Below, piece after piece: positions 29,266 to 47,771 of a stretch of 64,000 nt of DNA. Under the pieces are notes generated by a model. The model was given only the letters and a program-made list of their open reading frames with translations. It ran no database searches and was not told where the DNA came from. Source of the stretch: Prorocentrum cordatum (lineage: Eukaryota); the NCBI GenBank assembly GCA_963575745.1, contig CAUYUJ010000248.1:434001-498000 (forward strand), written 5' to 3'. The first letter of the stretch is position 1; the number at the start of each line of letters is the position of its first letter. Position numbers and translations under genes: made by a program.

Positions 29266-29316
<51 letters not shown>

Positions 29317-29737
29317 TCGCCAGCGAAGGAAAAGCGAGGGCCTGGGCGGGATGGCCCTTGGCCCACGGCAGAGAACATGGACTCGGATCCCATCTCCGGA
29401 GGAGCGGGCCCGAGCAGTGGGCCTGGGCTCTTACTATCGGTCCCTGGACGTCAGTGGAAAGAAACTCTACGACGCCGTGGGGGCCCACCTGGACCCGAGA
29501 TGCCTACAGCGCAGACTTGCGACCGCCATACTGGATTGGAGTAGGAGCGAGAACATCTCCGGGTGCCAACACGAAGCTCCGACAGAGGGCCAGATCTGGG
29601 CCACATGGAGACAGGCACGCAGGTTCGCCGACAGGAGCTGCCCTTGGGCGCCGCTCGCCGGGAACCCTTGTCCAGACGACATAGTCCGAGCCAGGCTGCA
29701 GCAACAGCTCCTAGATCAAGGGTCGCCGTTCCCCTAG
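26417..29737 (+). pseudogene. Pro/Arg-rich linker followed by a disrupted C5-cytosine DNA methyltransferase domain (~28361-29520)
   Basis: Motif I LVSLFDEWGLARLA, II FVEF, IV-like AGLPGASLS, GLAGS*TVQFF, VI-like CCEC, VIII IDSAATVASPRDRLW, IX RIPSPEERARAVGL, X LYDAVGAHLDP. Broken by TAG 28730, a C10 run and a (GA)n tract. Confidence 0.75.
29269..29313. repeat. (GA)n microsatellite inside the DNMT region
   Basis: Seen directly. Confidence 0.95.
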
Positions 29738-29900
29738 ACTCGCCTGAAGACCCAGGGACGCTTCATCTCGCCCTTGGGTCTCCCCCGCTCGCAACTCTCG
29801 TTCCGGGGGCGAGAACCAGAGCTTGGCAACTAGCCTGCTCCTCCCTGAGCCGCGCCCTCGCCCTGCACAGTAACCACACCGTCCGGCGACCGCGAGCCCT

Positions 29901-32900
29901 TTGGGCTTTCTTACACACTACCCCCTGGAGCAACCCCACCTGGGCGGACCTCTGCGGGGCCCTTTCCCTTCGTTCACTTATCGATGCCATCTCCAACGCC
30001 ACGCAAGCCGGTTCACTCAAGGTGGGCTGTTGGAACGTTGGTACCTCAAAAGCACGACTGTTCACAAGAACATGATTAAGCATGCCTTCTTGACGCAGAT
30101 GACCACCAACGGTAGGATCGGACTCATTCAGGAGACCCACTGGACAGAACACGAGGCTGCCGTCTGGTCCACCATGTTTCACGCCCGCACACTTGTCGCC
30201 TCTCCAGCCTACATTGGACCAGCCGGGGGTTGCGCCGGCGGAGTGGCGATCATCATTCCTCACGGCACCACACTCCTCCGGGCGGAAGACCTCGTCCCCG
30301 GATGTGCCGTTGCGGCCACCATGAGCCGAGGTGACAGCACCTACCGCCTGGTCTCGGTTTACCTCCCTCCCTCCAGGAAAGCCGAAACCATTGATGCCAT
30401 CAGGCAAGCCATCGAAAGGTGGGACGACACCCCTACATACTGGGGAGGGGACGTCAACATCCAGTTGGACAATCCCAGGGACGGTGAAACAGATGAGGCA
30501 GCGGCCCTGGCTGACCTGCTCTCACTGACTGGTTCAAGCGTCTGCCATTGCGATGGCCCCACAAGAGTGGACGCGGACAATGAACCACAGATCGACATCG
30601 TTGCCTGCCCCTTTCGTCAGCTCGGTGCCTACGGGGTCAGAAAGGCCTGGAAACCCTCAGTCTCCGACCACGCCATCCTTTACATGGAGCCGCAGGGCGC
30701 CCCCAGAACTCGCCGGGACAACACCATTCGCGCGGGCGACCTCCGCCTACTCCCAAGCGAGGCGCATGCTGAATTAAGGACTCTGTACTCCTTTCTTGGG
30801 CGCACCTTCGGGTTGCCGGACATCGACCTGACCGGCCTCCTTCAACCCGCCGACTGGGTCCGCCCGGCCACCCCTGGTCAATTCCCAGCCAGTCACTGCG
30901 ACAACGACGACGGCGAAGGGGAAAGGGAGCAGGAGACCTCCACTCCTCCCCCGGCCCCTAATCCGGGTGATGACCACACCGTCCCGCTTCTGCCCGCCCT
31001 CCTCACGCTTGGTCGCCACGCTCTGTCAGCCGCAATACAGGACTGGTGGAGGAAGTGGCGCAGAAGCAAAACCAACCGCTCGCCAGGGACCCTGCTTGCG
31101 GCCGCGGTAAGAGCGGATTCCACGACGCGCCCGGTGGGAGCGCTTGCTGCCTGGCTCGCGGAATACGAGTGGGACGGCAACGACTTAACACCTCAGCAGG
31201 CTGCCCTCTGGCTGCGAAGGTGGGACAATGACGCAGCGCAGAGACGCGCCACCCGCCTCACGCCCGCGCAAAGGGGCCCCGGAGTGGAGCGCCCCGCGCT
31301 TGCCTCTCACTACCGGACGGGGCGAGAAATCTTCGTCAGGACGCATGCCATCCTTGGAGTGCGCGACGAAGATGGAAGCTGGAAGGAGCGCACCAAGGAA
31401 GTTGACGACGTCCTATGGCGGAGCCGGAGTCCGATCTGGCAAACCGCCCCTCCTCTCCCCCCTACAGCGGACGGCATCCTAAACGAGTACTTCAAACAAA
31501 AGGACACGGGGCACTTCCCACACTCTCCCAGCCCACAGTGGGGCAGGATAGCCTCCCTCGTGCTGGGGCCTAGCGGCAGCGCCCCCGGTGTTGACGGTGA
31601 GCCGTACGAGCTGTATCATCCCGGTGCGCGCTTTGTTGCTGGACTCCTCGCCCAAGCCTGGTACGCCGCGGCACTGAACCCACGGCTCCTGGACCTGGCC
31701 CTTGGCCCCTCCGTCGACCTTCTGGTCTGGATCGGCAAGAAACCGGCCGCAGAGCGCCCTAACGACATGCGTGCCTTGCAACTCCCCACTTGCCTACGGA
31801 GACTGCATGGAGCGACCATTGCCGATTGCCTTGGCCCCGTGATTGAACCCAGGCTTAGCCCCAATCAAGCTGCCAAGCGCGGGGGACAGTGCGGCCCCAA
31901 CATCACCGCTGCCACCGACCATCTTGCCCTGGATCCCGTCCCCGACACCGAACCCGGGCCCTCCTGGACCGCCCTGCTTGGCGCACACCAAGAAGCTGTT
32001 GACCGCTATATACTGGACGCCGCTCGGCAACTAGGCCCTGCCCCGAGCACGGCTGTTCTCTTCTGCGATCAAAACAAAGCTTTCGAGCGCATATCCATAC
32101 AGTGGATGGGGCAGCTGGCAAGGCGTTGGCAGCTCCCGACCTGGCTCCTGCACTCCGTGGACTGCCTCGTCGGTAGCAGGAGCGCACGCACCTGCAAGGG
32201 TAGGTACAACATCAGAATAAGGAAGCTCTTACGGTCCATCGGAATGGGAGGCACCGCCTCCCCGCTCCTCTGGTGCCTAGGATACGACCCTCTCATCAGC
32301 GCCCTGGCCGACATCACCGGGGCGGACGATCCGACTTACGTGGACGACCTCGCTGCCCTGCTGGGCGCCACCGCCCAATCACTGCGCGCCGGCATCGCCT
32401 TGCCCTGGCTCGCAAGAGCGGCGGGGCTCCTCGTCGAAGCCCACCAGTGCAGGGGCATTGCAGCCCCATCCGGTATCAACATCAGGCAGTACCTGGACAA
32501 CGCCCCGGTGGACTTCAGCGATGATGGCACCACCACAACTGTTACAGGCCTGCCTGCCGGGCTCCTCCTGGAAATGATCAGTCGCGCTGCTGGCTCCAGT
32601 ATTGCGGCTCAGTGTTCTCCCTGGACCAGCCCATGCATGTGCAAATTTAAAACGGCCCTGGTCCCCGCCAGCAACCACGATTGGTGGAGACGCACCATGG
32701 ACTTCACCCCTTTCGGCTCGTCCGCCGTCCGTCCCCAGTGGCCCTATCTCGGCGCCTGCGTCGTATCTAGGGCTGCCGAAGGGGAAAATCTACCGCCCAG
32801 GGGGAGAATGACAAAGGGACAACTCGACGCCCTCGTCGCCGGCACCTGGGGCAAACCCCTCCCCAAGCTGCGGGGCCGGGCCATGGCCCTCCACCGTGCA

Positions 32901-33197
32901 AGCATGTCTCCCACTAAAACCGCCCTCGCCTGGAACACCTACCTCATCGCGCTCATCCCGTACCCATCCCACTACTCCCTCCCTGACACCGTGCAAGAAA
33001 GGGCACTCAGGGCACACCTGCGGGTAGCCCTTGGTCTTGCCTCTGCCTCCTGGACCCCAGACAACATCCTCACTGGCCTGGGCATCCGCTTCCAAGTCCC
33101 TGGCTGCCCCAAATGCCCGGTTGCTACCTCGCGTGCGATCGCGGCCAGGGCGCACGCCCTTGACGACCTGTGGGGGCCCCATACAGGCGAGACATAA
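29901..33197 (+). CDS. APE (EEP) endonuclease plus non-LTR reverse transcriptase
   Basis: EN: LKVGCWNV (adjacent frame, ~30016), IQETHW, GGVAI, VSVYLP, GGDVN, IDIV, SDH. RT: SAPGVDG, RALQL, DQNKAFERI, IGMGGTASPLLW, YVDDL (32337), WPYLG. Confidence 0.95.
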   Translation: MGFLTHYPLEQPHLGGPLRGPFPSFTYRCHLQRHASRFTQGGLLERWYLKSTTVHKNMIKHAFLTQMTTNGRIGLIQETHWTEHEAAVWSTMFHARTLVASPAYIGPAGGCAGGVAIIIPHGTTLLRAEDLVPGCAVAATMSRGDSTYRLVSVYLPPSRKAETIDAIRQAIERWDDTPTYWGGDVNIQLDNPRDGETDEAAALADLLSLTGSSVCHCDGPTRVDADNEPQIDIVACPFRQLGAYGVRKAWKPSVSDHAILYMEPQGAPRTRRDNTIRAGDLRLLPSEAHAELRTLYSFLGRTFGLPDIDLTGLLQPADWVRPATPGQFPASHCDNDDGEGEREQETSTPPPAPNPGDDHTVPLLPALLTLGRHALSAAIQDWWRKWRRSKTNRSPGTLLAAAVRADSTTRPVGALAAWLAEYEWDGNDLTPQQAALWLRRWDNDAAQRRATRLTPAQRGPGVERPALASHYRTGREIFVRTHAILGVRDEDGSWKERTKEVDDVLWRSRSPIWQTAPPLPPTADGILNEYFKQKDTGHFPHSPSPQWGRIASLVLGPSGSAPGVDGEPYELYHPGARFVAGLLAQAWYAAALNPRLLDLALGPSVDLLVWIGKKPAAERPNDMRALQLPTCLRRLHGATIADCLGPVIEPRLSPNQAAKRGGQCGPNITAATDHLALDPVPDTEPGPSWTALLGAHQEAVDRYILDAARQLGPAPSTAVLFCDQNKAFERISIQWMGQLARRWQLPTWLLHSVDCLVGSRSARTCKGRYNIRIRKLLRSIGMGGTASPLLWCLGYDPLISALADITGADDPTYVDDLAALLGATAQSLRAGIALPWLARAAGLLVEAHQCRGIAAPSGINIRQYLDNAPVDFSDDGTTTTVTGLPAGLLLEMISRAAGSSIAAQCSPWTSPCMCKFKTALVPASNHDWWRRTMDFTPFGSSAVRPQWPYLGACVVSRAAEGENLPPRGRMTKGQLDALVAGTWGKPLPKLRGRAMALHRASMSPTKTALAWNTYLIALIPYPSHYSLPDTVQERALRAHLRVALGLASASWTPDNILTGLGIRFQVPGCPKCPVATSRAIAARAHALDDLWGPHTGET

Positions 33198-35092
33198 GGC
33201 GGGGAGAAGGTGGAGCAAACTCGTGAAATTGGCGCGGGACTTCGCCCCTCGGGATGAGCCACGTAGGCCCGGCTCCAAGGTGCTGACCGACGCCAGGGCC
33301 GCTGACCTTTTCAATCGCGCCATGAGAGAGCCCCCTAGGCGCCGGGCTCGCTACTTCGGGCGCGTAGTTTACGTCGCGGCCTGGACGCAGCTCCACGGGC
33401 ACGTGGTGAGCTCCTGGTTCTCCACAAGCAGCCACGAACGTAGGTGGGCCCAAACAGACGGTGCGGAATGGTCCCTTCTCGGGCACTGCGCCTGCTTCAC
33501 CGAGGCGCACCACGTCCTCCGCGTTCTGGCCAACGGACTACCCGGATCCGCGCGTAGACGAAGCGTCGCTGACAGGATCCCCCACCAGTGCGGCTGCGGC
33601 AGGATGGCCAATAGAGTCTGGCTCACCGCTGGACAACGAGATCGCGGTCAGGCCTGGTGCGACTCGCGCCTCGGACCCTGGACCGGAGAGGCCTCCCTCT
33701 GGCCCCTCCTTGGCGACGACGCTTTGCCCGAGGACTTGCGTCCACTTGCTGCGGAGAGAAGAGGACAACTCGGAGACATCACCGTTCCAATACGGCAAGG
33801 ACTCTACGGAGCCTGCCCTCTCTGCGGCCTGGGAGAAGCCACTACTGAGCACGCGTGGGGCTGGTGCCCCGCCGCCGCCCTCGCCTGGGAAAAGACCAAA
33901 GGCCCTGACCACCCCAGAGACCTTCCCACCGCGATATGCCCCAGGCGGCAGCACCAGAGACTGGTCTGCCGCCTTCTACACCAGATCTCCTTTAGATACT
34001 GTGTGAACCTGGACTGTGCCCCCATCGGAGCCGACGAAGCCGCCAGAATCATTGTCCAGGGAATCTCCGTACCAGACACCGACCTCCAGGAAGACAATGA
34101 GGAGGAAGACGACATACAAGAAGGGCAGGCCCCTGCTGCACCGGCGGACGAAACTGCAGTCTGGGCCCCCATGCTGCTCCCCTGTCAACTTTGCAATCCC
34201 CAAGGCCCGCACCTGCTGCGCATTCAGGGGGCCGCTGGTCCGCATCTCGGCGGACAAGCTCCACGCGCTGGAGGGGAAATCCGGCACCTCCCTGTCACGA
34301 CCAGGATCGTGCGGAGTGGGGATCGGCTCGCCGTTCTCCAATCGGGCGACACCAGAGCGAGTTGGATGCCGCCTGGGTTGGGCTGGTTCCCCTGCCCCAG
34401 GACAGACAGGTCCCCCAGTGCCCTCTGGACCAAGAGCTACCGCCGACTCTGCGACCTGCATACCCTGGTGCTCAGAGCCAGCAGGGACATGGAAGCTGGC
34501 GAGGAGATCACCGTCAGAGACTCTCCGCCCCCCGCTGCCGATGCGGCCCAATGGCCCTTTGAGCTCACCTTCGACGGGGGGGCTCGCCGAATTGGGGGAG
34601 ACGACAAGGTCTCCGGGGCGGCAGCTGTCCTCTGGAAACACGACCCGCACCGCGGCTACCCTCGCGTCGTCGCGGTTGCCGTTGTTGCCCTCCCGGGCTG
34701 CGACAATGCACAGACGGCGAAGGCATCCGGGTGCAGAGCGGGACTCGCCCTGCTCCCCCACCTTGACACCACCCTCCGAGGTGCCCGGGGTGGTCGGCGA
34801 CAATCTTGCCGCCATCCGGTACGGAGCTGGCACGGGCCGCTATCGCCGGCTCTACCTGGCACAGCAGATGGACTTCGCCCTTCGGCAAGCAAGCGAAGCC
34901 GGATGGACACTTACATGGCAGGCCGTGCGTCGTCGCCTCAACAAAGCAGCTGACCGTCTTGCCACACTAGGTGTCTTCTGGGCCGATGCCCTTCGACGCG
35001 CCGGCGATCTAGCCGTCACTTCCTGGGTCGTCTGGGAGGGCTCCCAGCTGCCCCCCCCCCCTGTTTCCTGCCGCGGACATCGACCTCTGTGA
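33031..35092 (+). pseudogene. RT C-terminal region: CCHC zinc knuckle, SET-like segment, RNase HI (frameshifted)
   Basis: CPLCGLGEATTEHAWGWCP; LRASRDMEAGEEITV; FDGGAR...SGAAAVLW...NAQTAKA; then in the 34016 frame VVGDN...WQAVRRRLNKAADRLA. Confidence 0.8.
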
Positions 35093-35261
35093 CTTGGACC
35101 AAGTTGCGCTGTTTGTTGATGCCCTCGAAAATCCCCCCCCTCCCCCCCCTCTGATCGCCCCCCGCCGCGACACACTAAGGTCCTGACGGGTCGCAGCGTC
35201 ACTGCCATCACAAGAAGCGCAGCCATCCGCTGCCACCCTGGACCGGTTCCCACCCTAGACA

Positions 35262-38200
35262 ATGCCCAAAAACAACCAGGGCCCCCTCCGCCGTTGGCCC
35301 TCCTGCCTACCGCACAGTGACGAAGGGCCGCCAATGCGCGCGGGCACGCGCGTCTTCCTGGCCCGCTTCTGTCCCTGGATGCGTTGGGTCTACTTCCACG
35401 GCGGTTGGCGACACTGGCGCGAGATCTGCCAGGAGCCCGTCGACGACACAGAACACATCCTAAGCGCGAAGCACTACGACATGTCGGCGGCACGGTACCA
35501 GGACGGGCGGCCAGACCCGAACACTTTCACCACTCCTGGGAATCTTTGGTGCATGTGCGGAGGGAACCCCTACGACGCTACCCACCAGGTGTCTGTCACG
35601 CGGTTGGCCTGGCGCGGCTGGAAACCAGCCCAGCCCTTGGTTACCCGTGACGGGGTGCGCTCGCTACCTGGCATCGCGATCCCCGAGGATGCGCTGCACG
35701 TGCCCATTACCTACCCCCTCTGGGACGATCCGTCGACATACAACTGCCCAGGAGGCACCAGGGTGGAGCCGGAGAAGGTTCGTTCGCACATGATGGACAG
35801 GCGGGGCGCCGCAAAAGAGGGCCTCAGACAGCCCGAGGACGGCGACGGGAACAGGATGCGGGCGAAATCGTCCATCTGGCTACCCCCCTCACCTGGACAG
35901 GCCGCAGGCTCCTCTGGGGTACCTCCCCCTCCGCGCCCGCCGTCTCACCCTCCTCCTGCCTGGAGCCCACCCTGCCAGCAGCGAACAGTCCAGCTGGCCG
36001 AGGGCAGTGAGACGGAGATTGAAGCTCTCTCTCCGACAAGTCCAGCTGCCCTGGAAGATTCACTGGCCACGCAGGCAGCCTCAGACGTCGCCAACCTTTA
36101 CTCGGTTCCGCTGGACTCCCCGCACTCTAGAGTCCACCCCAAGGCAGCGCTCGGGGAACTAATCAATGCCGTCCGACTCCCCTCACAATGGCCATACTCC
36201 CTCCAGGACCGAGGGCAAACGTTAAGGAGGATCGCCTGGGTCGAAAGCCAAGCCTCGGTCGAGACGGTAGACGACGGCAGAGGCTCCACGCGAGAGGATT
36301 TAGCCAGAAGGGGTAACTGTGCCCTCGGAGTTCGCGTCACCAGGATCGATGCCAATACGCGCATGGAGGACCTGGACACCTTTCGGCTGCGGAACGCCAT
36401 GCACCTACCCGACGGTAAGGAATTTCTGTTGTTGGAGTGGCCCTCAATGTGCAAGGTCGCGACCAGACCCTTGGAACGTGACAAAGAGAGCAGGTGGCTT
36501 TACATTTCAGTCACGGGCCCGACGGTAGACAAGATCGCTGACGTCTCAGTTTGGTGGCCTCCCGCCCTGGGCGGTCACATCCATCCCAGGGATGCTCAAG
36601 CGCTAGGTCTCAGCCCTTCCGACAGGTACCCCTCGAACTTGCGCATCGTGGTCTACAACTACGGGAAGGGCGGGCAGTTTCACGAAGACGAAACCAAGGC
36701 GAGACGCCCCCCTAGCGACGATCTCCCCTGGCATCGTGTGGATGAAGCCCCTTCTGACATCCAGTTTTGGCGGCAATGCTCGGCACTGGACCAGATCTAC
36801 TACCTGCGCCAAAACCCAGCGGATCTGTTCGGCCACCAGCTTTCACCTCTGACGTACCTTCTTGCCTTTGTTCACGCCCCTCGGTCGGATCGAACCTTGG
36901 CCAACGACTTGGGACACATGCGTTCCCTGGGGCTGAGCCTTAGAGCCAGGGCGGAGGCCACCCTTGAGCGGAACGTCCCAGACGCCGACCACTTGCAAGC
37001 AGTCGAAGACGGCACGCTATTGCAGGCACCGCCTCTCCCCCAAGGCTTAAAGGCGTTCTCTGACGACGAAATCTCAGATACGACAGGCTCCGTCTTTCAG
37101 AGAGTGCGTCCTACTCCCAGCTTGGACACGCTCCACAGGATTATCGACAAGCACAGGCCGAACGGCGATGCGACCAGCGCCCTGCGTGCCACCCTGAACC
37201 ACCATGCTGTTCTATTGCACGGACCCCCTGGAACTGGCAAGACCACCTTCTCAGTTGCCTGCTTGGACATGTGGGGTTCCTGCCTACGCCCTGGACACGC
37301 TGTCGCTTTGGCAGCAGGGTCCAACACGGCGGTCGACCAACCAGCTCTGGCAATGATCGAGGCACAACGTCAGCGGCGCCTCGACCAAGACACGGGCTTC
37401 CCCGACAAGTTCGTGCGCCTGGCAAGGAAGGACCGTGTCAACGAGGCACTTGTTGACCTTACTCCCGAAGGTCACTACAGAAACGCCCACGGCGAGTTCC
37501 CTTTCCAGGACGGGGACAAGAACCAGGGCTTCAAGCCCTACAAGGCGAGCTTACTACGTCAGGCCAGGATAATCATGTCCACGCACGAGGCGTCAGAGGC
37601 ACTTGGCCAAAAGGACAGCCCCCAAATCGTCCTCCTAGTCATCGACGAGGCCGGACAAGCCACTGAGCTCCACGCGCTCATGTCCATGGTAAATCTGATC
37701 AACAGCGGAGGGACCGTGGTCCTCGTCGGAGACCCCAACCAGCTGCCCCCCACAGTGCTCTCCAAACTGGCGAACGAACTAGGGCTCTGCGTCAGCATCT
37801 TCGACAGGATGTTCCACGCACTCCGCGGCCAGGAGTCTTCAGTAGTTCACCTTTCAATCTGCTATCGGATGCATCCGCAGCTACTCGCTTTCCCGAATGC
37901 AGCCTACTACGGGAAAGGCATGAAATCTGGCATCCTGGATCCGCTCAGAGAGCGGCCAATAGTTGAGGGCATTCCCTGGAGAGACATTCGTGTGTGGGAA
38001 CCTGAGCGACTGGCAAAGCTGGCTACACTCACCGGTTCCGACGAAAGTGACCTCCGCGCCACCCTTGAGCCCCTGGACCCGCCGCTGAGCCCAGACAAGC
38101 ACCGTTTCCTAATGGTGCACACACCCTCCTGGGAGGTCACCTCCGAGCTACAACCAGGCTTTGCCAATCTTCCGGAGGCGGCCCAAGCCGTGGATATTGT

Positions 38201-40025
38201 GCGCGCCCTGCTACCGGAGCTCCACAAGGGCACCACTGTCAGAATCGTGGTCGGCTACCAGCTCCAGACGGCCATTCTCATGGACGGATGGCCGCAGGGT
38301 CCTCGTCACCTCTCCGGCGTTCTGCGTAACACCAGAGGTGGCGCCAAAGGGCAGCCCGGCAAGGGGAAAGACGGTCCTGGACGCGGTGGTCAGGATATTC
38401 CCGGCCCTGGACAACCCCCCCAAGGCCACTGGGTGGACACTCACCGCTGGCAACAGGTGTTCCGGGAAGACGACAATGCTAACACTGCCATCAGCTCTAA
38501 CTTCCCTGGACTACGTCAGGTGGCGGGCGAGCACATGAGCACTGGGGCTCTCAAACTCACGACAATCGACTCCAGCCAGGGAGGCGAGGCGGACATCGTA
38601 ATAGTGTTAACTGCTCGGAGCAACGGCAGCTACAACTGGGGTTTCGTCGACGACGCCAAGCGCCTGAACGTGGCAATCACCAGGGCCAAGCGGAATATCC
38701 TGACCTTGGGAGACGGTCGCATGTTCGCCAACGCCACATGGTCGCAGCTTCGCGTGCTCTCAGAGCATGGGAGATTGACTCGCCTCTGGGTCCAGTTTCG
38801 TGGCAGCGCCCCCGTGGGCCGCAGGCTCTCCCTGGACATTGACGACAGCTTCGACCCACTCCAGGACCTTGCCGCATGGATTCCCTCGCCCCCTGCCTGG
38901 GGCAGCGTCGCAAAGGGGGAGAACGGACAGAACGACCTGGACCTCGCCAAGAAGAAAGCGCGCGATGCCCAGGCCACCTGCTTCGCCGAGCGGTTCAATG
39001 CACCCCTGGAAGAGAGCTTCGACTGGGACACCCTGGGCAAGCTAATCTCGGGAGGGCTCCGCGATATCCTCTCGACGCCGGCCTTCCACGTGCTCATCTA
39101 CCTTATGTCTGGGCTGCATCCTCACGAGTTCACGTTGGCCAACACACCGCGGGAGCCGGGCATGCTCGACCGCAAGGCTTGGTCGCACCTGGGGTTCTTG
39201 TTTGACATGTCTCTCGGGCTCGACGCGACCAATCTAGTCTACAACACGCTGTGGGCAGCAATGGTTTGGTCGCTCGGCCTAGGCACCCCCTGGAGGGATG
39301 CGAGCTACGCCATTCCCGACGACTCCCTTCCCCCGCTGCCTCACGCCAGCGGCAGGCGTGCAACACTGTGGAAGCGCCGCCAGTGTACCCCCAAAGGGCT
39401 TTTCCGTCAGGTCCCCAAGGTTTGGAGCTCCGCTACCAAGGACTGCTGCAGACACCGGAAGCACCCTGGAATGACCGGGTTGGGAGACATCATCCGGGGG
39501 TGCGGCTCCTCGATGGAAGAGTTCCGTCAGGGACTCTTAGACACCGACGGCCAGCCCATGGATTCCTGCAAGGCCCGCTCGCTTCTGGCGGTCATGATGC
39601 TTATGCTCCGTGAGCCGCGAGTGTTTCTATGGCCTTTCTCTCATGCAGAGCAGGCCGGGGACGTCATCGAAGCGATTCTGGTTTTCTGCGTACCCTGGCA
39701 AGAGGTCCACCAGGATTCCCGAAGCCGGTTCGCCAGTACCTGGAGCCTCACCCTGGAAGACTTGGCCGACCTGCACAGTCGCATCGAGGCAGTGCTACCA
39801 CACATCTCCAAGCTCGTGGCTTTGGCCCATCACCACCCGGCTGCGCAGGAAGCCGGCTGCCCGCAAACCTGGAGCGAGATGGACAGGCAGGACTTCCAGC
39901 TGCAAGCGCCGATGATCGTTCTCGAACGGATCGTCCCGGCAGCAACTCTGACCTGCCTGGACACGGGCGACTGCTCGAGGGTGGATCGTTCAAGCGAAAA
40001 GACGCTCGTTCGAGCGAAAAGGTAA
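35262..40025 (+). CDS. UPF1/DNA2/NAM7-like superfamily-1 helicase, interrupted at 39977 by a nested insertion
   Basis: GPPGTGKT (37221), SNTAVD, VIDEAGQ (37644), LVGDPNQLPP, SIFDRM, YRMHP, TIDSSQGGEAD, RLNVAITRAK (38661). Confidence 0.93.
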   Translation: MPKNNQGPLRRWPSCLPHSDEGPPMRAGTRVFLARFCPWMRWVYFHGGWRHWREICQEPVDDTEHILSAKHYDMSAARYQDGRPDPNTFTTPGNLWCMCGGNPYDATHQVSVTRLAWRGWKPAQPLVTRDGVRSLPGIAIPEDALHVPITYPLWDDPSTYNCPGGTRVEPEKVRSHMMDRRGAAKEGLRQPEDGDGNRMRAKSSIWLPPSPGQAAGSSGVPPPPRPPSHPPPAWSPPCQQRTVQLAEGSETEIEALSPTSPAALEDSLATQAASDVANLYSVPLDSPHSRVHPKAALGELINAVRLPSQWPYSLQDRGQTLRRIAWVESQASVETVDDGRGSTREDLARRGNCALGVRVTRIDANTRMEDLDTFRLRNAMHLPDGKEFLLLEWPSMCKVATRPLERDKESRWLYISVTGPTVDKIADVSVWWPPALGGHIHPRDAQALGLSPSDRYPSNLRIVVYNYGKGGQFHEDETKARRPPSDDLPWHRVDEAPSDIQFWRQCSALDQIYYLRQNPADLFGHQLSPLTYLLAFVHAPRSDRTLANDLGHMRSLGLSLRARAEATLERNVPDADHLQAVEDGTLLQAPPLPQGLKAFSDDEISDTTGSVFQRVRPTPSLDTLHRIIDKHRPNGDATSALRATLNHHAVLLHGPPGTGKTTFSVACLDMWGSCLRPGHAVALAAGSNTAVDQPALAMIEAQRQRRLDQDTGFPDKFVRLARKDRVNEALVDLTPEGHYRNAHGEFPFQDGDKNQGFKPYKASLLRQARIIMSTHEASEALGQKDSPQIVLLVIDEAGQATELHALMSMVNLINSGGTVVLVGDPNQLPPTVLSKLANELGLCVSIFDRMFHALRGQESSVVHLSICYRMHPQLLAFPNAAYYGKGMKSGILDPLRERPIVEGIPWRDIRVWEPERLAKLATLTGSDESDLRATLEPLDPPLSPDKHRFLMVHTPSWEVTSELQPGFANLPEAAQAVDIVRALLPELHKGTTVRIVVGYQLQTAILMDGWPQGPRHLSGVLRNTRGGAKGQPGKGKDGPGRGGQDIPGPGQPPQGHWVDTHRWQQVFREDDNANTAISSNFPGLRQVAGEHMSTGALKLTTIDSSQGGEADIVIVLTARSNGSYNWGFVDDAKRLNVAITRAKRNILTLGDGRMFANATWSQLRVLSEHGRLTRLWVQFRGSAPVGRRLSLDIDDSFDPLQDLAAWIPSPPAWGSVAKGENGQNDLDLAKKKARDAQATCFAERFNAPLEESFDWDTLGKLISGGLRDILSTPAFHVLIYLMSGLHPHEFTLANTPREPGMLDRKAWSHLGFLFDMSLGLDATNLVYNTLWAAMVWSLGLGTPWRDASYAIPDDSLPPLPHASGRRATLWKRRQCTPKGLFRQVPKVWSSATKDCCRHRKHPGMTGLGDIIRGCGSSMEEFRQGLLDTDGQPMDSCKARSLLAVMMLMLREPRVFLWPFSHAEQAGDVIEAILVFCVPWQEVHQDSRSRFASTWSLTLEDLADLHSRIEAVLPHISKLVALAHHHPAAQEAGCPQTWSEMDRQDFQLQAPMIVLERIVPAATLTCLDTGDCSRVDRSSEKTLVRAKR

Positions 40026-40063
40026 TCCGTTCAAGCGAAAACCAACCGAGCGAAAACCAATCC

Positions 40064-40866
40064 AGAGCAGCAGAGAGCAGCAGAGAGCAGCAGAGAGCAG
40101 CAGCAGAACAGCAGAGAGCAGCAGCAGAACAGCAGAGAGCAGCAGCAGAACAGCAGAGAGCAGCAGCAGAACAGCAGAGAGCAGCAGCAGAGCAGCAGCA
40201 GCAGAACAGCAGAGAGCAGCAGCAGAACAGCAGAGAGCAGCAGCAGAACAGCAGAGAGCAGCAGCAGAACAGCAGAGAGCAGCAGCAGAACAGCAGAGAG
40301 CAGCAGCAGAACAGCAGAGAGCAGCAGCAGAACAGCAGAGAGCAGCAGCAGAACAGCAGAGAGCAGCAGCAGAACAGCAGAGAGCAGCAGCAGAACAGCA
40401 GAGAGCAGCAGCAGAACAGCAGAGAGCAGCAGCAGAACAGCAGAGAGCAGCAGCAGAGCAGCAGCAGAGACAGCAGAGAGCAGCAGCAGAACAGCAGAGA
40501 GCAGCAGCAGAACAGCAGAGAGCAGCAGCAGAACAGCAGAGAGCAGCAGCAGAACAGCAGAGAGCAGCAGCAGAACAGCAGAGAGCAGCAGCAGAGCAGC
40601 AGCAGAACAGCAGCAGAGCAGCAGCAGAACAGCAGAGAGCAGCAGCAGAGCAGCAGCAGAACAGCAGCAGAACAGCAGCAGAACAGCAGAGAGCAGCAGC
40701 AGAGCAGCAGAGAGCAGCAGCAGAAGCAGCAGAACAGCAGAGAGCAGCAGAGAGCAGAGAGAGAGCAGTAGAGAGCAGCAGAAGAACAGCAGAGAGCAGC
40801 AGAGCAGCAGCAGAACAGCAGAGAGCAGCAGCAGAACAGCAGAGAGCAGCAGCAGAGCAGCAGAGA
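40064..40866. repeat. 21-bp minisatellite (AGCAGCAGCAGAACAGCAGAG)
   Basis: Seen directly; the + strand is almost T-free. Confidence 0.95.
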
Positions 40867-40876
40867 ATCAGATAGC

Positions 40877-43800
40877 AAAATCATGGTTCCCGCCATCCTC
40901 GGGGCCGCCGTGGGTCCCACGGGCGCCAGCCAGAGCCCGGAACCACGATTTCGGGCTTTTCCGGCCTGGATCTCTCCAAAATCATGGTTCCCGCCATCCT
41001 CGGGGCCGCCGTGGGCCCCAGGGGCGCCAGCCAGAGCTGGGAACCACGATTTCGGGCTTTTCCGGCCGGATCTCTCCAAAATCATGATTCCCGCCATCCT
41101 CGGGGCCGCCGTGGGCCCCAGGGGCGCCAGCCAGAGCTGGGAACCATGATTTCGGGTTTTTCCGGCCTGGATCTCCCCAAAATCATGGTTCCCGCCATCC
41201 TCGGGGCCGCCGTGGGTCCCACGGGCGCCAGCTAGAGCCGGGAACCACGATTTCGGGTTTTTCCGGCTTGGATCTCTCCAAAATCATGGTTCCCGCCGTC
41301 CTCGGCGCCGCCGTGGGTCCCAGGGGCGCCAGCCAGAGCTGGGAACCACGATTTCAGGCTTTTCCGGCCTGGATCTCTCCAAAATCATGGTCCCCGCCAT
41401 CCTCGGAGCCGCCGTGGGTCCCACGGGCGCCAGCCAGAGCTGGGAACCGCGATTTCGGGCTTTTCCGGCCTGGATCTCTCCAAAATCATAGTTCCCGCCA
41501 TCCTCGGGGCCGCCGTGGGTCCCAGGGGCGCCAGCCAGAGCTGGGAACCACGATTTCGAGCTTTTCCGGCCTGGATCTCTCCAAAATCATGGTTCCCGCC
41601 ATCCTCGGGGCCGCCGTGGGCCCAGGGGCGCCAGCCAGAGCTGGGAACCACGATTTCGGGCTTTTCCGGCCTGGATCTCTCCAAAATCATGGTTCCCGCC
41701 ATCCTCGGGGCCGCCGTGGGCCCCAGGGGCGCCAGCCAGAGCTGGGAACCACGATTTCGGGCTTTTCCGGCCTGGATCTCTCCAAAATCATGGTTCCCGC
41801 CGTCCTCGGCGCCGCCGTGGGTCCCAGGGCGCCAGCCAGAGCCGGGAACCACGATTTCGGGTTTTCCGGCCTGGATCTCTCCAAAATCATGGTTCCCGCC
41901 ATCCTCTGGGCCGCCGTGGGCCCCAGGGGCGCCAGCCAGAGCTGGGAACCACGATTTCGGGCTTTTCCGGCCTGGATCTCTCCAAAATCATAGTTCCCGC
42001 CATCCTCGGGGCCGCCGCGGGCCCCAGGGGCGCCAGCCAGAGCTGGGAACCACGATTTCGGGCTTTTCCGGCCTGGATCTCTCCAAAATCATGGTTCCCG
42101 CCATCCTCGGGACCGCTGTGGGTCCCAGGGGCGCCAGCCAGAGCTGGGAACCAAGATTTCGGGCTTTTCCGGCCTGGATCTCTCCAAAATCACGGTTCCC
42201 GCCATCCTCGGGGCCGCCGTGGGTCCCACGGGCGCCAGCCAGAGCTGGGAATCATGATTTCGGGCTTTTCCGGCTTGGATCTCTCCAAAATCATGGTTCC
42301 CGCCATCCTCGGGGCCGCCGTGGGTCCCAGGGGCGCCAGCCAGAGCTGGGAACCACGATTTCGGGCTTTTCCGGCTTGGATCTCTCCAAAATCATGGTTC
42401 CCGCCATCCTCGGGGCCGCCGTGGGTCCCACGGGCGCCAGCCAGAGCCGGGAACCACGATTTCGGGGTTTTCTGGCCTGGATCTCTCCAAAATGATTCCC
42501 GCCATTCTCGGGGCCGCCGTGGGTCCCAGGGGCGCCAGCCAGAGCAAATCATGGTTCCCGCCATCCTCGGGGCCGCCGTGGGTCCTAGGGGCGCCAGTCA
42601 GAGCCGGGAGCCATGATTTCGGGCTTTTCCGATTTCGGGCTTTTCCGGCCTGGATCTCTCCAAAATCATGGTTCCCGCCATCCTCGGGGCCGCCGTGGGT
42701 CCCACAGGCGCCAGCCAGAGCCGGGAACCATGATTTCGGGCTTTTCCGGCCTGGATCTCTCCAAAATCATGGTTCCCGCCATCCTCGAGGCCGCCGTGGG
42801 TCCCAGGGGCGCCAGCCAGAGCTGGGAACCACGATTTCGGGGTTTTCTGGCCTGGATCTTTCCAACATCATGGTTCCCGCCATCCTCGGAGCCGCCGTGG
42901 GCCCCACGGGCGCCAGCCAGAGCCGGGAACCATGATTTCGGGTTTTTCCGGCCTGGATCTCTCCAAAATCATGGTTCCCGCCATCTTCGGGGCCGCCGTG
43001 GGCCCCAGGGGCGCCAGCCAGAGCTGGGAACCATGATTTCGGGCTTTTCCGGCCTGGATCTCTCCAAAATCATAGTTCCCGCCATCCTCGGGGCCGCCGT
43101 GGGTCCCAGGGCGCCAGCCAGAGCTGGGAACCACGATTTCGGGCTTTTCCGGCCTGGATCTCTCCAAAATCATGGTTCCCGCCATCCTCGGGGCCGCCGT
43201 GGGCCCCAGGGGCGCCAGCCAGAGCTGGGATGATTTCGGGCTTCTCCGGCCTGGATCTCTCCAAAATCATGGTTCCCGCCATCCTCGGGGCCGCCGTGGG
43301 CCCCAGGGGCGCCAGCCAGAGCTGGGAACCACGATTTCGGGTTTTTCCGGCCTGGATCTCTCCAAAATCATGGTTCCCGCCATCCTCGGGGCCGCCGTGG
43401 GCCCCAGGGGCGCCAGCCAGAGCTGGGAACCATGATTTCGGGCTTTTCCGGCCTGGATCTCTCCAAAATCATGATTCCCGCCATCCTCGGGGCCGCCGTG
43501 GGCCCCAGGGGCGCCAGCCAGAGCTGGGAACCATGATTTCGGGCTTTTCCGGCCTGGATCTCTCCAAAATCATGGTTCCCGCCATCCTCGGGGCCGCCGT
43601 GGGCCCCACGGGCGCCAGCCAGAGCTGGGAACCACGATTTCGGGCTTTTCCGGCCTGGATCTCTCCAAAATCATGGTTCCCGCCATCCTCGGGGCCGCCG
43701 TGGGCCCCAGGGGCGCCAGCCAGAGCTGGGAACCATGATTTCGGGCTTTTCCGGCCTGGATCTCTCCAAAATCATGGTTCCCGCCATCCTCGGGGCCGCC

Positions 43801-43910
43801 GTGAGTTCCTGGGGCGCCAGACAGAGCCGGGAACCGGAATTTCGGGGGTTTTCCAGCCTCGACCTCTCCAAAATCGTGGTTCCCGCCATCTTCTGGGCTG
43901 CCGTGGGTTC
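40877..43910. repeat. ~101-bp tandem satellite, about 30 copies
   Basis: AAAATCATGGTTCCCGCCATCCTCGGGGCCGCCGTGGG... recurs at 40877, 40978, 41078 and onward. Confidence 0.96.
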
Positions 43911-44004
43911 TTTTCGCGCGCGCGCGCCCAGCGGATTTTTTTCGAACGGCCCGCAGTTTTCGCGCGAATCGATTTCGCGCGGACGGCGGACCCTCCGACT
44001 GCTC

Positions 44005-46188
44005 AGTGTGTGCACTACACGTCGCACTGGCTGGTTCCGACGCCTCCCTCGGTCCCGACGACAGGGTTGCGGGCCTTTCCTACATCGGCGGCGGACTTGC
44101 CTTGTCCCAGTCGACCTCAATGCCCCTCCACCACTGGCTCCGGCCCCGGGCACCAGACTGGACCCTCTGTTCATCCCCGACGAAAGGCTCGCGCTCGAAA
44201 AGAAGAACAACAGATACACGTGCGACAGTTGCGGGAAGGACCACCTGACTGCCGCTGAATGTACCTGGATATCCGACAGCACGCGCCAGATGGTCGCTCA
44301 GAGTAGACCTCAGGCGTACATCAACGGCGCCAACGTGGGCTGGTACTGCGCTGGCTGCTGGATACGTAACCTCGAGGACAATGGCTTCCCTACGCCTGCC
44401 GGAACGAAGCTCACCGACAGAATCAGGGAACATGAGCAGCAGATATCGGGCGCCGGCAACGACAGAGCGAGCGCCCTCCCTTCCCTGGGACTCCTTCCGC
44501 TCGGCTACGGCTGCAGCCCCCTGGCGGACACGAGGCAGTTAGATGACCTCCTCATTGAACCGACGGGCATGAAGATCCCCGAGTGTGCCAATACCACCAT
44601 TCCGATCCTCCGGATCCGGGACGACCGCTTCGGCATCAAAGCCGCTCAGACGCGGACCTACTCCGCGCGGTGCGACACCTGCCCCCAGGGGGCCCCGCTC
44701 CTGGTCTGGGACCCCCGCTCTCCGCCGCTGGGGTGCTTCATATGGAAGCCGGCTGAAGACATAGGAGCTCCCGAGCAACATGGGCTGCCCCCCATCGATA
44801 AGCGTGCCCTGGCCTGGTCGGGGCGCCAATGGAACGCTACTTGGTGCTGCCGGCGCTGTCTGGTCCCGATCTGGAACATAGGCCCGGCCACCCTGGGCCA
44901 CATCCTGGATCGCGACTTCAGGCCGCTGTATCCAGATGAACCTCCGGCCCTTCCCCCGCTCAGCAGCCAGATTGGGTTCAAGGCACCTGTGGACATCGTG
45001 GATTCCCTCCCGTGGCTTGGCGAGGACGCCAAGGCCCAGGACCAATTCACCAAGGTCGGAGCAAGCAATCCCCCTGGACCCAGCCCCACAGGCAGCTCTG
45101 GCGCGGCGCCAGAGATCACCTCCCTGGCAGGGTCCCCGCCATCTGGCGCGTGTTCTGGTGGCGACGACAGGCCAGATACTCCCATGGCGGCCGACACAGA
45201 CAGGTCTCAGGGTTCAGCGGACAACGACTCACGCATGGGCCACCATGACCCGCCCGACGACGACAACGGTGAAGGCGCGGAAGACGGGCTCCCCCTTCAC
45301 AAGATGGAGCCCGACTACGAAGAGGATGAACCCGCCCGTCCTCCCACGCCTTCCGAGTCGGCCCAGGAGGGCGATGATAATCGCTCAGGCGGCGATGCCC
45401 CACAGCGAAGCCCGTCGGCGGGCAGCTCTGACACCAGCCGCGAGGATACCGCGACTTCAGTCGCAGAAGATACGCCCTACGCCGATCGCAGGAGGGCTCC
45501 AGCCCGAGACCCCGCGAGGCACGAGAGGACCAGCGACGGTGGCGGCTCGCGGTACGAGCGCTTTCCCGCGCCCACCCCGACGCCCCCTGAGCGGAGGCCC
45601 CATTACTCTCGCCATACTGGCTCTTCGGAGCAGGACGCACTCAACATGCTGTCCTGCCCTGATGGAGGCGGCCCAATGTACAAAGTCAGGCTGGGCACCG
45701 TCGAACTCGAACGTCCCGACGAGACACCAGCCAGTCGCATATCCAGGCTTCAGTCGCAGCTGGGAGCAGTCTTTTGCGCACTGTGGACAGCGAACACGCA
45801 GCGTACCTTGCTCCCTGGATGGGGGGCGCCCAAGTCCGACCCGAAACTACACATGCCCTCGGATATCATCAACTTCCTAGAGGCCTGGAAGGACTGCGGG
45901 CACGACGCCTACGAGATGAACAGGAGGCTGGGCTATGAGATCGACTGGAACAAGATACGAGCCAACTACCTGCGTCACTCCCAGACAGACGACAGGAGCA
46001 AAGGCGGCTATCGCCACACGGGCTGGCGCGACCGTGCGACAAGTTTCTGGGACACCTGGAGCAGTTGGCAGGGCGAGTGGCGCGACGGATGGCGCGAGGA
46101 CCACTGGCAGACGGGTGGCAAGCGCGGCGGAGGTTACCCTGATGATTGGGATGATCGAGAGGAAAAGAGACTCCGCTGGAGAGACTGA
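44005..46188 (+). CDS. 3'-most element ORF: paired CxxC motifs, acidic linker, W/R/D-rich C-terminus; unknown function
   Basis: Non-satellite part of ORF 43735-46188: CDSC...CAGC and CDTC...CRRC. The start codon in the track lies in the satellite and is artefactual. Confidence 0.65.
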   Translation, partial: SVCTTRRTGWFRRLPRSRRQGCGPFLHRRRTCLVPVDLNAPPPLAPAPGTRLDPLFIPDERLALEKKNNRYTCDSCGKDHLTAAECTWISDSTRQMVAQSRPQAYINGANVGWYCAGCWIRNLEDNGFPTPAGTKLTDRIREHEQQISGAGNDRASALPSLGLLPLGYGCSPLADTRQLDDLLIEPTGMKIPECANTTIPILRIRDDRFGIKAAQTRTYSARCDTCPQGAPLLVWDPRSPPLGCFIWKPAEDIGAPEQHGLPPIDKRALAWSGRQWNATWCCRRCLVPIWNIGPATLGHILDRDFRPLYPDEPPALPPLSSQIGFKAPVDIVDSLPWLGEDAKAQDQFTKVGASNPPGPSPTGSSGAAPEITSLAGSPPSGACSGGDDRPDTPMAADTDRSQGSADNDSRMGHHDPPDDDNGEGAEDGLPLHKMEPDYEEDEPARPPTPSESAQEGDDNRSGGDAPQRSPSAGSSDTSREDTATSVAEDTPYADRRRAPARDPARHERTSDGGGSRYERFPAPTPTPPERRPHYSRHTGSSEQDALNMLSCPDGGGPMYKVRLGTVELERPDETPASRISRLQSQLGAVFCALWTANTQRTLLPGWGAPKSDPKLHMPSDIINFLEAWKDCGHDAYEMNRRLGYEIDWNKIRANYLRHSQTDDRSKGGYRHTGWRDRATSFWDTWSSWQGEWRDGWREDHWQTGGKRGGGYPDDWDDREEKRLRWRD

Positions 46189-47728
46189 ACTCCCTCTCTG
46201 CCCTCGCCGCCCCCCAGTGCCCGCGCCACCACCTGCGCTTCACAACGCGCCACCGCGGCCCTCTGCCGCCCTTTCCCTCAACCTGGGGCAGCTCTGCCTC
46301 CCCCCCCTGAACGGCACCCTCTCTCACCCTTGGCCTCGGGGTGCCGTTCGGTAATACCGTCTGCTCCCTGCGTGACACCGCGCATCCTGCAGACCAACTT
46401 GCCACTGGCATCACTGCCTTTCCCCACCGGTGGCCGACGCCCTCTTGTCACACGCTTCCTCTTTCCCCGCCTTGCTTCACTTCCTGAATTCCAGCGGACG
46501 CTGCCCAGGCCGCGCTGCGGGCCCCTAATCGCGGCGCTCTGCCGCCCTCCACCCGATGCGCGCACCTCCTGCCTTTGGATCCAGGTGCGCGCTTCGGCAA
46601 TACCGTCCACCGCCTCTCCGCAGTGGACTCGCGGCCTCAGGCCCTACTGTAGTTGTCTCACCGCCAGGCCTTCCTGGCTTGTCAGTGGGCCACGGTTCGC
46701 CTGTCCACTGGCTTTCCCCCTGGACTTTCTAACCGAACGAACGGCCTTCCGCGTCACCCTGGACCTTTCAAACAAGCAGCACGGCCTTCCGCCGTCACCC
46801 TGGATCCAATGGCTCTGAGGGACACGTCTCGGGTACAAGGCGTCCTCGTCCCTCTGTGCTAGACGACTCGGTTGGGTATCGCTGGGCCACCTTAGATGTG
46901 CATACTCCTCGGGGTCTGCCGTGCATCGTGCTCTTCTACGCCCTTCCACTCGTCGGATCTGGGCTGTCGCATCTCAGTTGTGGAAGATATTCTTGTCATC
47001 TTGCTCCACACCCTGGATGCGCTTTCTAGCGTTGCGACTGGCTCGCCGTCTGCTTTTTTCCATTGGTCCGTGTTCCCAGTCAGCCTGTGGTACCCTTCAG
47101 GCTCCATGGATCGGTGCCCTCTGGTGCTCCCTTGCTGGACGGCTTCCTACCGCGACCCTGGATCAGTGGCTTTGTGGGACTTGCCTGGGTATACACGGTC
47201 TCGTTCCGCGTGTGCCCTCCGTCTCGTTCTGGACTGCACTGTGACACTGTGGTGTGCACACGCCGCGTTTCGACGGGTAGCGTGCATCAGGTGCCCTTCC
47301 ACCCGGGGGTCTGGGCCGAAACATCTCGGTGTGGTAGTCTTCTCGGAACATGTTCACACCTTGATGCCGTTCTGGCGCCGCGGCTCGCTGCCGCCGTCGG
47401 GATCCTCGCTGGACTTACCTCCCCGTCGTCTGTGCTACCCGACAGGCTGGGGTTGACGTCCTCGGGTCGTTCCCTTGTCCGCACCTGGACGTTGGAACGT
47501 TATCGCGCCATTTTGGCTGCGCTAGGTCGTCTCGGTGCCTACCTCAGGCCCGTTGGACGCACCTGCATGCCCGTTCAGGGGCTGTCATGGCACCTGGATT
47601 GCATCGGCCTCGCCCCCCTGGACGCTGTCGTGAGCCGCCTGATCCGCGGCCCTGCGCGCGTTAGGTAATTTAGTCGCGTCCGCGGCCCGTTCGCGACCTT
47701 CCGCCGCTGGCGCTTCCGCCTGCGGCTG

Positions 47729-47737
47729 TATATATAT

Positions 47738-47771
<34 letters not shown>
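47729..47771 (+). repeat. (TA)n 3' tail of the giant retrotransposon
   Basis: Directly precedes the right TSD. Confidence 0.9.

Follow-up and report, generated by a model that had tools for sequence, protein, structure and literature searches.

An Upf1-like helicase gene as the third gene of a giant non-LTR retrotransposon in a Prorocentrum cordatum contig

Long interspersed nuclear elements (LINEs), retrotransposons without long terminal repeats (non-LTR), are regarded as elements of 4-8 kb with two genes, which make use of the helicases of their host. Here, we analysed a 64,000-nucleotide stretch (hereafter the window) of contig CAUYUJ010000248.1 in the Prorocentrum cordatum assembly GCA_963575745.1 (positions 434,001 to 498,000, forward strand), in which a gene for a superfamily 1 (SF1) helicase follows the reverse transcriptase (RT) of a LINE-type unit. 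The helicase gene is a long-standing part of this unit and not a host gene, being the third gene (open reading frame 3, ORF3) of a giant non-LTR retrotransposon, probably of the apurinic/apyrimidinic endonuclease (APE) type, because it lies on the same strand 169 nt after ORF2 inside the target-site duplication (TSD), is multi-copy, is linked to the RT elsewhere and has no cellular twin. The main parts of the unit, in window coordinates, are as follows.

16260..16272, + strand: left copy of the 13-bp TSD, GTATCCCTACCAG, from an exact 13-mer pair and the alignment of the left flank
16273..47771, + strand: the giant non-LTR (LINE-type) retrotransposon, recognised by its TSD, (TA)n 3′ end, ORF2 with APE-like domain and RT, and long ORFs all on one strand
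29725..35092, + strand: ORF2, APE-like endonuclease and reverse transcriptase, from Pfam, tblastn and a family profile
~30345-30677, + strand: APE-like endonuclease in ORF2, a weak Exo_endo_phos_2 match
~32016-32402, + strand: reverse transcriptase in ORF2, a weak RVT_1 match
35093..35261, + strand: spacer of 169 nt from the ORF2 stop to the helicase ATG, covered at 35157 by contigs of other sequencing runs
35262..39976, + strand: first 1,571 codons of the helicase gene, covering an N-terminus rich in Cys and His, a probable 1B barrel, the SF1B core and, behind the core, a conserved C-terminal domain
39977..44004, no strand assigned: nested insertion of 4,020 bp (39977-43996) and the second copy of its own TSD (43997-44004)
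44005..46188, + strand: remainder of the helicase gene, in which a Cys-rich region precedes a long Pro-rich tail, from tblastn of the relative P0002
46189..47771, + strand: non-coding 3′ untranslated region (3′UTR) of ~1.6 kb, ending in (TA)n (~47731-47771)
47772..47784, + strand: right copy of the 13-bp TSD, GTATCCCTACCAG, directly after the (TA)n tail

The unit spans 31,499 bp, or ~27.5 kb without the nested insert, in a window of 51-70% G+C. It is bounded by a true TSD, because a paralogous flank unit at 14280-14860 aligns with the left flank (133/160) up to the 13-mer and with the right flank from the 13-mer onwards. A previous sequence-only reading of this DNA had placed the helicase in a TSD-bounded unit of 27 kb, and the 13-mer pair, the paralogous flank and the length after subtraction of the insert bear this out. 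No long direct repeats were found at the element ends among the repeats listed, a listing dominated by satellites, and Rfam returned no match on the window.

ORF2 carries an APE-like domain followed by the RT, in the order expected of such elements. Exo_endo_phos_2 scored 19.2 bits in the window and 20.4 bits in the relative P0123, below the cut-off of 27.4 and at the expected position in both, and RVT_1 scored 22.8-28.6 bits, slightly below its cut-off of 29.6. A profile of the ORF2 family matched the R2 retrotransposon protein over the RT among the chains of the Protein Data Bank (PDB) at 9.1e-6 (0.066 for a single member alone), which identifies the RT as one of the non-LTR kind. Two relatives of near-full length were found, P0122 (1,811 aa, 62% identity) and P0123 (1,791 aa, 52%), and tblastn of these intact proteins showed the window ORF2 to be broken into four frame pieces by frameshifts near 30040, 33177 and 34789. 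Other runs differ from the window by one-base indels at 30039, 33181 and 34787, and at 33181 and 34787 nearly all of the depth disagrees with the window. An RNase H domain guessed at the end of ORF2 was supported by neither Pfam nor the PDB sequence search and was dropped.

The helicase ORF (35262..40025, + strand) starts with ATG and comprises 1,587 aa in the ORF listing and its translation, the last 16 codons being derived from the nested insert; the start of the protein, MPK..NQGP, is kept in an alignment with P0002. Its core contains the following elements, all on the + strand.

37119..38786 (aa 620-1175): Upf1-like SF1B helicase core, from AAA_11/AAA_12 in Pfam, PDB matches and invariant motifs
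37221-37244 (aa 654-661): GPPGTGKT, Walker A, invariant in the alignment
37641-37664 (aa 794-801): IDEAGQAT, motif II, invariant
aa 823-832: GDPNQLPPTV, invariant
aa 867-872: CYRMHP, invariant
~38319-38546: Gly/Lys-rich insert between motifs IV and V, in the second RecA domain, present also in P0002, P0003, P0124, P0125 and P0140
aa 1101-1109: TIDSSQGGE, invariant
aa 1136-1142: NVAITRA, invariant, with motif VI at ~38661-38693

The sequence-only reading had described an uninterrupted helicase of the UPF1/DNA2 type, with its motifs from Walker A to motif VI in one long intron-free ORF, and had proposed the AAA_11 and AAA_12 models as a check. The observation is confirmed because Pfam scores, solved relatives, invariant motifs in one frame and an improbable open run all agree with it. 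AAA_11 scored 95.4 bits and AAA_12 94.9 bits, both well over the cut-off of 27, and both models also exceeded the gathering score in the relatives P0002, P0003 and P0124. The closest solved structures in the PDB sequence search were Sen1 (7e-28), UPF1 (2e-25), IGHMBP2 (2e-18) and DNA2 (1e-14). SF1 motifs I, Ia, II, III, IV, V and VI are complete in a single frame of the ORF, are invariant in a three-way alignment of the window protein with P0002 and P0003, and align to the UPF1 and Sen1 chains; 1,571 stop-free codons would arise by chance at the local base composition with a probability of ~2e-20. The word uninterrupted holds for the helicase core and not for the full gene of ~2,500 aa, which is cut at codon 1572 by the 4-kb insert and carries one further frameshift. 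Viral_helicase1 reached 22.8 bits in the ORF, no stretch passing on its own, and AAA_12 was far stronger; by its domain scores, the helicase is of the cellular Upf1/Sen1/DNA2 type and not of the alphavirus-like type.

Short-read contigs (200-700 bp) of four public runs (X1-X4) were compared with positions 28000-40050. Run X1 yielded 2,728 contigs over these 12 kb, 374 of them at 99% identity or more, 766 at 95-99%, 1,181 at 90-95% and 407 below 90%, and 10-15 distinct contigs covered single sites, in the RT part (30158, 34853) as well as in the helicase part (36194, 37898, 38704, 39866), a contig depth that does not equal copy number. Diverged copies were many in all four runs, across RT and helicase alike. 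The element and its helicase are multi-copy, as a single-copy gene would not yield so many diverged contigs. No listed contig spans the whole of the 169-nt spacer between ORF2 and the helicase.

The pairing of RT and helicase recurs in a diverged lineage. The 90% cluster of P0002 holds four full-length helicases, on contigs of 15,598, 26,613, 27,133 and 24,281 bp, and the RT-cluster members P0282, P0122, P0278 and P0285 lie on contigs of precisely these sizes. Chance would not give equal sizes in four of four cases, and RT and helicase are therefore linked in this relative lineage. The pairing would thus be known in two lineages, that of the window and that of P0002, at 62% protein identity for the RT and 51% for the helicase. 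The sequence-only reading had called for linkage to the RT across copies, and had named as the case against itself a near-identical single-copy host gene linked to an RT at this locus only; what we found instead were diverged relatives, many copies and a second lineage with the pairing. That a single-copy host helicase gene merely lies near a retrotransposon is hardly credible, given that the gene has no close cellular relative (the next best match being 7e-32 at ~30% identity), occurs in multiple copies in four runs, lies inside the TSD and is linked to an RT elsewhere.

A composite locus, in which a helicase from another mobile element or the host came to lie beside the LINE through nested insertion so that the 27-kb unit is a mosaic, would accord with the abundance of nested insertions here (the 4-kb insert within the gene and a 253-bp retroposon in the flank) and with an upstream 13 kb that has no detectable relatives. 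However, one TSD pair surrounds the entire unit and the (TA)n tail follows the 3′UTR of the helicase gene, the RT and helicase are paired, by matching contig sizes, on four contigs of the diverged lineage, and the RT part, spacer and helicase part are each covered by many diverged contigs, leaving this explanation very unlikely.

The window copy of the helicase gene is broken, which the sequence-only reading had not noticed. Residues 1-1554 of P0002 (2,541 aa) matched 35262-39977 at 48% identity in tblastn, and residues 1553-1590, 1603-1939 and 2120-2541 matched 44000-44113, 44149-45189 and 45049-46182; by frame check, the gene continues behind the insert in the frame of 44000-44113, with a frameshift between 44113 and 44149. 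Position 39976 is the insertion breakpoint because the P0002 homology breaks at 39977 and resumes at 44000. The intervening block is flanked by an 8-bp TSD, GACTGCTC, at 39969-39976 and 43997-44004, has imperfect terminal inverted repeats beginning GAGGGT, and consists nearly entirely of tandem repeats, namely a CAG-rich 21-nt array and ~29 copies of a 101-nt satellite (93-94% identity), so that it is transposon-like, resembling a non-autonomous DNA transposon. These repeats give spurious long ORFs at 41515-44258. The 4-kb block is an insertion private to this copy or genome, because contigs of runs X2, X3 and X4 show the empty site, passing straight from 39976 into the letters of 44005-44034. 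With three frameshifts in ORF2, the 4-kb split of the helicase gene and one more frameshift behind it, the window copy is dead, or mis-assembled at the ORF2 frameshift points, while intact versions exist.

The broken state of this copy and the variable length of the C-terminal third (relatives range from 1,314 to 2,945 aa) are compatible with a passenger, a cellular helicase gene picked up by one LINE lineage and carried without serving the element. Yet the frame stays open for 1,571 codons, far beyond the chance expectation given above, the catalytic motifs and three flanking domains are kept at 33-51% identity across lineages, far more than an unselected passenger would retain, and 7.6 kb would be a heavy useless load. 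We consider a passenger quite improbable.

Relatives of the helicase are few and lie far from known cellular proteins. Among 5.8 billion proteins, 408 matches were obtained, of which only P0002 (51% identity) and P0003 (34%) span the whole query region; after these two, the best match fell to 7e-32 at ~30% identity. An exhaustive search gave 15,460 matches at E ≤0.001, headed by P0124 (2,945 aa, 470 bits) and ~20 fragments, with cellular helicases at 135 bits or less, and the nearest proteins from outside the family are ~25-40% identical over the helicase core. A EukProt label naming a Pyramimonas species is attached to short fragments that share 75-95% identity with the window protein, and on this basis the host would probably be a pyramimonad-like green alga. 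Relatives at 32-42% identity bear the label Prorocentrum cordatum and, in one case, also Polarella glacialis (both dinoflagellates); the remaining relatives are ENA or Logan contigs. The window DNA itself was found in two organism-labelled runs and several marine metagenome runs. Prokaryote genomes yielded 80 loci with the helicase core only, viral contigs a single generic helicase locus, and JGI metagenome contigs at least 78 loci, all with the helicase core only among the matches listed; among the matches listed, none of 79 loci (601,341 bp) contained the N-terminal part, the C-terminal domain, the P0002 tail or an RT. One relative, P0133 (labelled Prorocentrum cordatum), combines the second helicase half with the conserved C-terminal domain. 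Behind these, residues ~700-760 look like the end of a putative cytosine-5 DNA methyltransferase, and the protein may be a chimeric gene model.

A quick maximum-likelihood tree was computed from 43 helicase cores aligned in 435 columns, comprising 5 element rows, 6 Sen1/SETX, 2 UPF1-like, 4 IGHMBP2, 3 DNA2, 3 MOV10-like and 20 unnamed top matches, with ZNFX1, aquarius and HELZ absent. The element helicases formed a single clade (SH-aLRT 99) on a stem of 0.97, outside the Sen1 (99), DNA2 (100) and MOV10-like (100) clades, the IGHMBP2 group and the UPF1-like rows. Its sole neighbours were two unnamed rows on long branches, at a fork that stays open. In the PDB profile search, ZNFX1, aquarius and HELZ were far weaker (1e-14, 9e-14) than UPF1 and Sen1 (~1e-45). 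None of SEN1_N, UPF1_Zn_bind, R3H, the MOV10 barrel or the DNA2 nuclease domain was found in the family proteins by Pfam at E up to 0.01-0.1, and UPF1_Zn_bind was present in the true UPF1 P0187. Two candidate identities were rejected on these data: a UPF1 orthologue, as the protein has no CH domain (UPF1_Zn_bind) and falls outside the UPF1-like rows, and a Sen1/SETX orthologue, as it has no SEN1_N and is excluded from the Sen1 clade (SH-aLRT 99). The sequence-only reading had spoken of a captured cellular-type helicase and proposed a phylogeny against host UPF1, SETX and MOV10. The cellular type is retained, with AAA_11/AAA_12 at ~95 bits against 22.8 bits for Viral_helicase1, and a recognisable capture from UPF1, SETX or MOV10 is not, the element clade standing long-stemmed outside all named cellular groups (ZNFX1 not being in the tree). 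The element helicase is likely of old cellular origin, judging from its domains and tree position, with no donor family that can be named.

When whole, the product would comprise ~2,500 aa, a Upf1-like, predicted 5′-to-3′ SF1B helicase to which several modules are added: an N-terminus rich in Cys and His, probably a 1B barrel, the Gly/Lys-rich loop of RecA2, a putative RNase III-like domain and a Cys-rich module. The domain behind the core has the following position.

39009..39881, + strand (aa ~1250-1540): conserved all-alpha domain of ~300 aa with an RNase III-like predicted fold

This domain is kept in P0002, P0003, P0124, P0125 and P0133, with the conserved blocks LHPHEF, DRKxWSxxGFLxD, LDAxNxVY, REPR, GDxxEA and HHH..EAGCP. 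Its AF2 model is all-alpha (pLDDT 65, pTM 0.73). In a VIA-align search of 48,161 chains, the top match was the trypanosome editing complex chain 9dei_B (Z 7.7) and the second was Entamoeba RNase III (Z 6.9), and 11 of the 50 rows listed were RNase III, Mini-III or Dicer RNase III domains by title (Z 3.3-6.9), all Z values here lying below the tool's caution line for helical folds. Foldseek gave nothing at E ≤0.001, Pfam nothing at E up to 10 and the Atlas no usable match for this domain, and the PDB profile search was swamped by the helicase part. When the domain was compared by hhalign with four bacterial RNase III proteins, only GDVIEAIL aligned with the later RNase III motif (P 0.023, not significant). 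The RNase III signature has the consensus ERLEFLGD, with an acidic pair in a later helix. At the place of the signature the family has LGFLFD, its glutamates seemingly replaced, and GDxxEA is kept. We treat the RNase III-like fold as a lead from modelling that has about an even chance of being right.

For the N-terminal 640 aa, the model was too poor for a structure search (pLDDT 39.5). The Atlas leads for aa 1-600 were 1B domains of Upf1-like helicases with scores of 0.85-0.87 (under 0.9), and the low-confidence N-terminal model has beta strands at aa 353-495; a 1B barrel ahead of the core is probable on this modelling. Residues 1-75 (35262-35486) are Cys/His-rich, with the pattern CxxC ... 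C ... CxxC ... H ... H in P0002 and P0124; the window copy has other residues at two of these Cys positions. From this Cys/His spacing we read a putative N-terminal zinc finger, which has no Pfam match.

What might such a protein do for a LINE? RNA replicons above a few kilobases carry helicases, which accompany long RNA genomes, and the helicase of nidoviruses is laid out as a zinc module, a 1B domain and a Upf1-like core. The reading we favour, at roughly balanced confidence, is that ORF3 encodes a replicative helicase for the very long RNA intermediate of the element. In this proposal, the ORF3 protein would act on the element's own nucleic acids: a GC-rich RNA of ~27 kb would need to be freed of structure and copied from end to end, and the helicase would bind this RNA and spend ATP on removing structure, proteins or RNA:DNA hybrid while target-primed reverse transcription proceeds. 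Given that Upf1-like enzymes move 5′ to 3′, unwinding ahead of the RT would be the less likely task; clearing proteins or structure off the RNA, or peeling the RNA from an RNA:DNA hybrid as Sen1 does, would be likelier. The family profile matched nidovirus helicases in the PDB profile search (MERS 4.9e-10; SARS-CoV-2 nsp13 ~1e-6). Like the nsp13-type helicase, the element protein joins a Cys/His-rich N-terminal module (putatively zinc-binding) to a Upf1-like core, and nidovirus RNA is likewise a replicon of ~30 kb. By contrast, the present element is a retroelement and not an RNA virus, its putative N-terminal zinc module has no Pfam match, and the demonstrated kinship is that of the shared superfamily.

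The main rival is a counter-defence gene, whose product would bind or unwind double-stranded RNA of the element or disturb host Upf1-type surveillance and so shield the 27-kb multi-ORF transcript from RNA silencing or nonsense-mediated decay (NMD). The sequence-only reading had already raised template unwinding, as well as escape from NMD or RNA silencing, as possible roles. Many Upf1-like helicases act in silencing pathways. A predicted RNase III-like fold behind the helicase would suit such a role, and the apparent replacement of the signature glutamate (LGFLFD) fits binding over cutting; near cellular matches include a fusion of a helicase with an RNA-dependent RNA polymerase (P0162) and one with a double-stranded-RNA-binding motif (P0141). 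In addition, weak silencing suppression is reported for the viral-type SF1 helicases of insect LINEs (PMC6338049), as are encounters of the Upf1-like helicases MOV10 and UPF1 with L1 ribonucleoproteins (RNPs) in human cells (PMC5821459). Against this, the RNase III assignment is weak on all three measures given above (Z, Pfam and hhalign), and the helicase motifs are all intact, more than a mere decoy would require. We regard counter-defence as somewhat unlikely, though a serious candidate.

Several observations weigh against a replicative helicase. A 5′-to-3′ helicase travels on RNA opposite to the RT, so that simple unwinding ahead is a misfit and hybrid removal or RNP remodelling must be assumed. 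The RNase III-like and zinc modules, both putative, may speak for double-stranded RNA and silencing no less than for replication. Linkage in the relative is read from equal contig sizes, the four contigs represent one lineage at 90% identity, and P0124, P0273, P0003 and P0276 have no RT partner on an equal-sized contig among the 18 RT-cluster members listed. No RNA dataset is among the runs listed as containing the DNA. Finally, 17 listed window-specific substitutions inside the helicase ORF fall 7/4/6 on codon positions 1/2/3, and therefore the window copy decays neutrally and is silent on selection. A broader proposal joins the two roles: a giant LINE lineage in a pyramimonad-like green alga, uncultured marine relatives and perhaps dinoflagellates may carry a replicase-like kit, an RT and a Upf1-like helicase fused to an RNase III-like domain, that would enable retrotransposition of 27 kb, with a protein that may also blunt RNA silencing or NMD. 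This fuller picture we put forward only tentatively. If true, finding it in two eukaryotic phyla so distant from each other would suggest that it spread horizontally, and it would parallel the helicases that let RNA viruses expand their genomes.

A viral SF1 helicase domain has been described in insect LINEs (Jockey, and TRAS from the R1 clade) and in LTR elements, which are the closest published counterparts (PMC6338049, PMC5563155; Lazareva 2015, Morozov 2017). The insect LINEs are likewise non-LTR retrotransposons with an SF1 helicase containing all motifs, viewed as accessory, and the same two ideas have been raised, an aid to reverse transcription or an interplay with RNA silencing. Their helicase is alphavirus-like (Viral_helicase1), was taken from plus-strand RNA viruses and forms a fusion within ORF2, whereas the present element has a Upf1-like (AAA_11/AAA_12) helicase in a separate third gene of 2,500 aa with further domains, is ~5 times longer and has an alga-type host. 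In the open-access literature, repeat catalogues and supplements lying outside its scope, we found no LINE with its own Upf1-like helicase gene and no LINE of this size; the helicase-bearing LINEs found there were from insects only, with a virus-derived domain. Within that literature, the cell-type helicase would be a new accessory gene for a non-LTR retrotransposon.

Compared with APE-type LINEs such as L1, the element shares an APE-like domain (a weak match) ahead of the RT in ORF2, a 13-bp TSD, a 3′ end of simple repeats and many 5′-diverged copies, and differs in its ~27.5 kb, the ~13 kb of unassigned ORFs before ORF2, the third gene after it, and an RT so divergent that Pfam stays under cut-off and the only PDB match is R2, leaving no assignable clade. 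With Sen1/SETX, UPF1, IGHMBP2, MOV10 and DNA2 it shares the common core and motifs and, probably, a 1B domain ahead of the core; in contrast to these cellular helicases, it scores ~95 bits on AAA_12 (~148-263 for 53 cellular matches), is transposon-borne and multi-copy, forms its own long-stemmed clade and is without their signature accessory domains. Dicer and other helicase-plus-RNase III proteins, compared by function only, also place a helicase before an RNase III-type fold (tentative here), whereas the Dicer helicase belongs to SF2 (RIG-I-like) with two RNase III domains and the element protein is SF1B with one RNase III-like domain, the signature motif seemingly without glutamates.

A helicase gene behind a LINE RT, recurring in a distant relative, is unusual for the non-LTR class, and a 27-kb LINE with a separate conserved helicase of 2,500 aa would extend what non-LTR elements are known to encode. 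With this element, one could ask in a natural setting whether a long RNA replicon depends on a helicase of its own; its protein modules, one of them predicted to be RNase III-like, are open to target studies, and the element provides a handle on the repeat-rich, poorly annotated genomes of algae and dinoflagellates.

Upstream of ORF2, ~13 kb (16499..29544) contains five open frames, all on the + strand.

16499-18094, + strand: open frame of no known function, from the ORF listing
18442-21168, + strand: open frame of no known function, from the ORF listing
21347-26410, + strand: open frame of 1,687 aa with a RING finger at aa 433-486 (Pfam)
26411-28732, + strand: open frame of 773 aa, in the same phase as the preceding one after a single stop (26408-26410)
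28570-29544, + strand: open frame of no known function, from the ORF listing

The RING finger is the only domain recognised in this region, and the frame at 21347-26407 had no homolog of near length (927-2,953 aa). Together, 18442-21168 and 21347-28732 form an unusually large "ORF1 region" of ~10 kb.

The surroundings of the element are rich in repeats. A 253-bp retroposon with a short A tail (14460-14712, within 14447-14725) has GTATCCCCACCAG on both sides, which is the 13-mer target of the giant element, in the paralogous flank unit; within the retroposon, GCGCCATTTTGGCT resembles the 3′UTR of the giant element near 47505. The shared 13-mer target and the 3′UTR likeness suggest that this site is favoured for insertion and that the retroposon is perhaps a small non-autonomous partner. 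An 11-nt satellite (TTGCCATGCAA and variants) forms arrays at 15314-16121, 48403-48736, 50041-52713 and 54345-56695 that surround the element and belong to a larger repeated flank unit. Farther upstream, a 6-kb (GAC)n array at 600-6617 (~2,000 units, 72% matches) gives artefactual long ORFs on both strands. Just upstream of the repeat-rich flank, an intron-free ORF at 12572-14251 (559 aa) encodes a protein kinase domain (Pkinase 1.4e-42) and is possibly a host gene.

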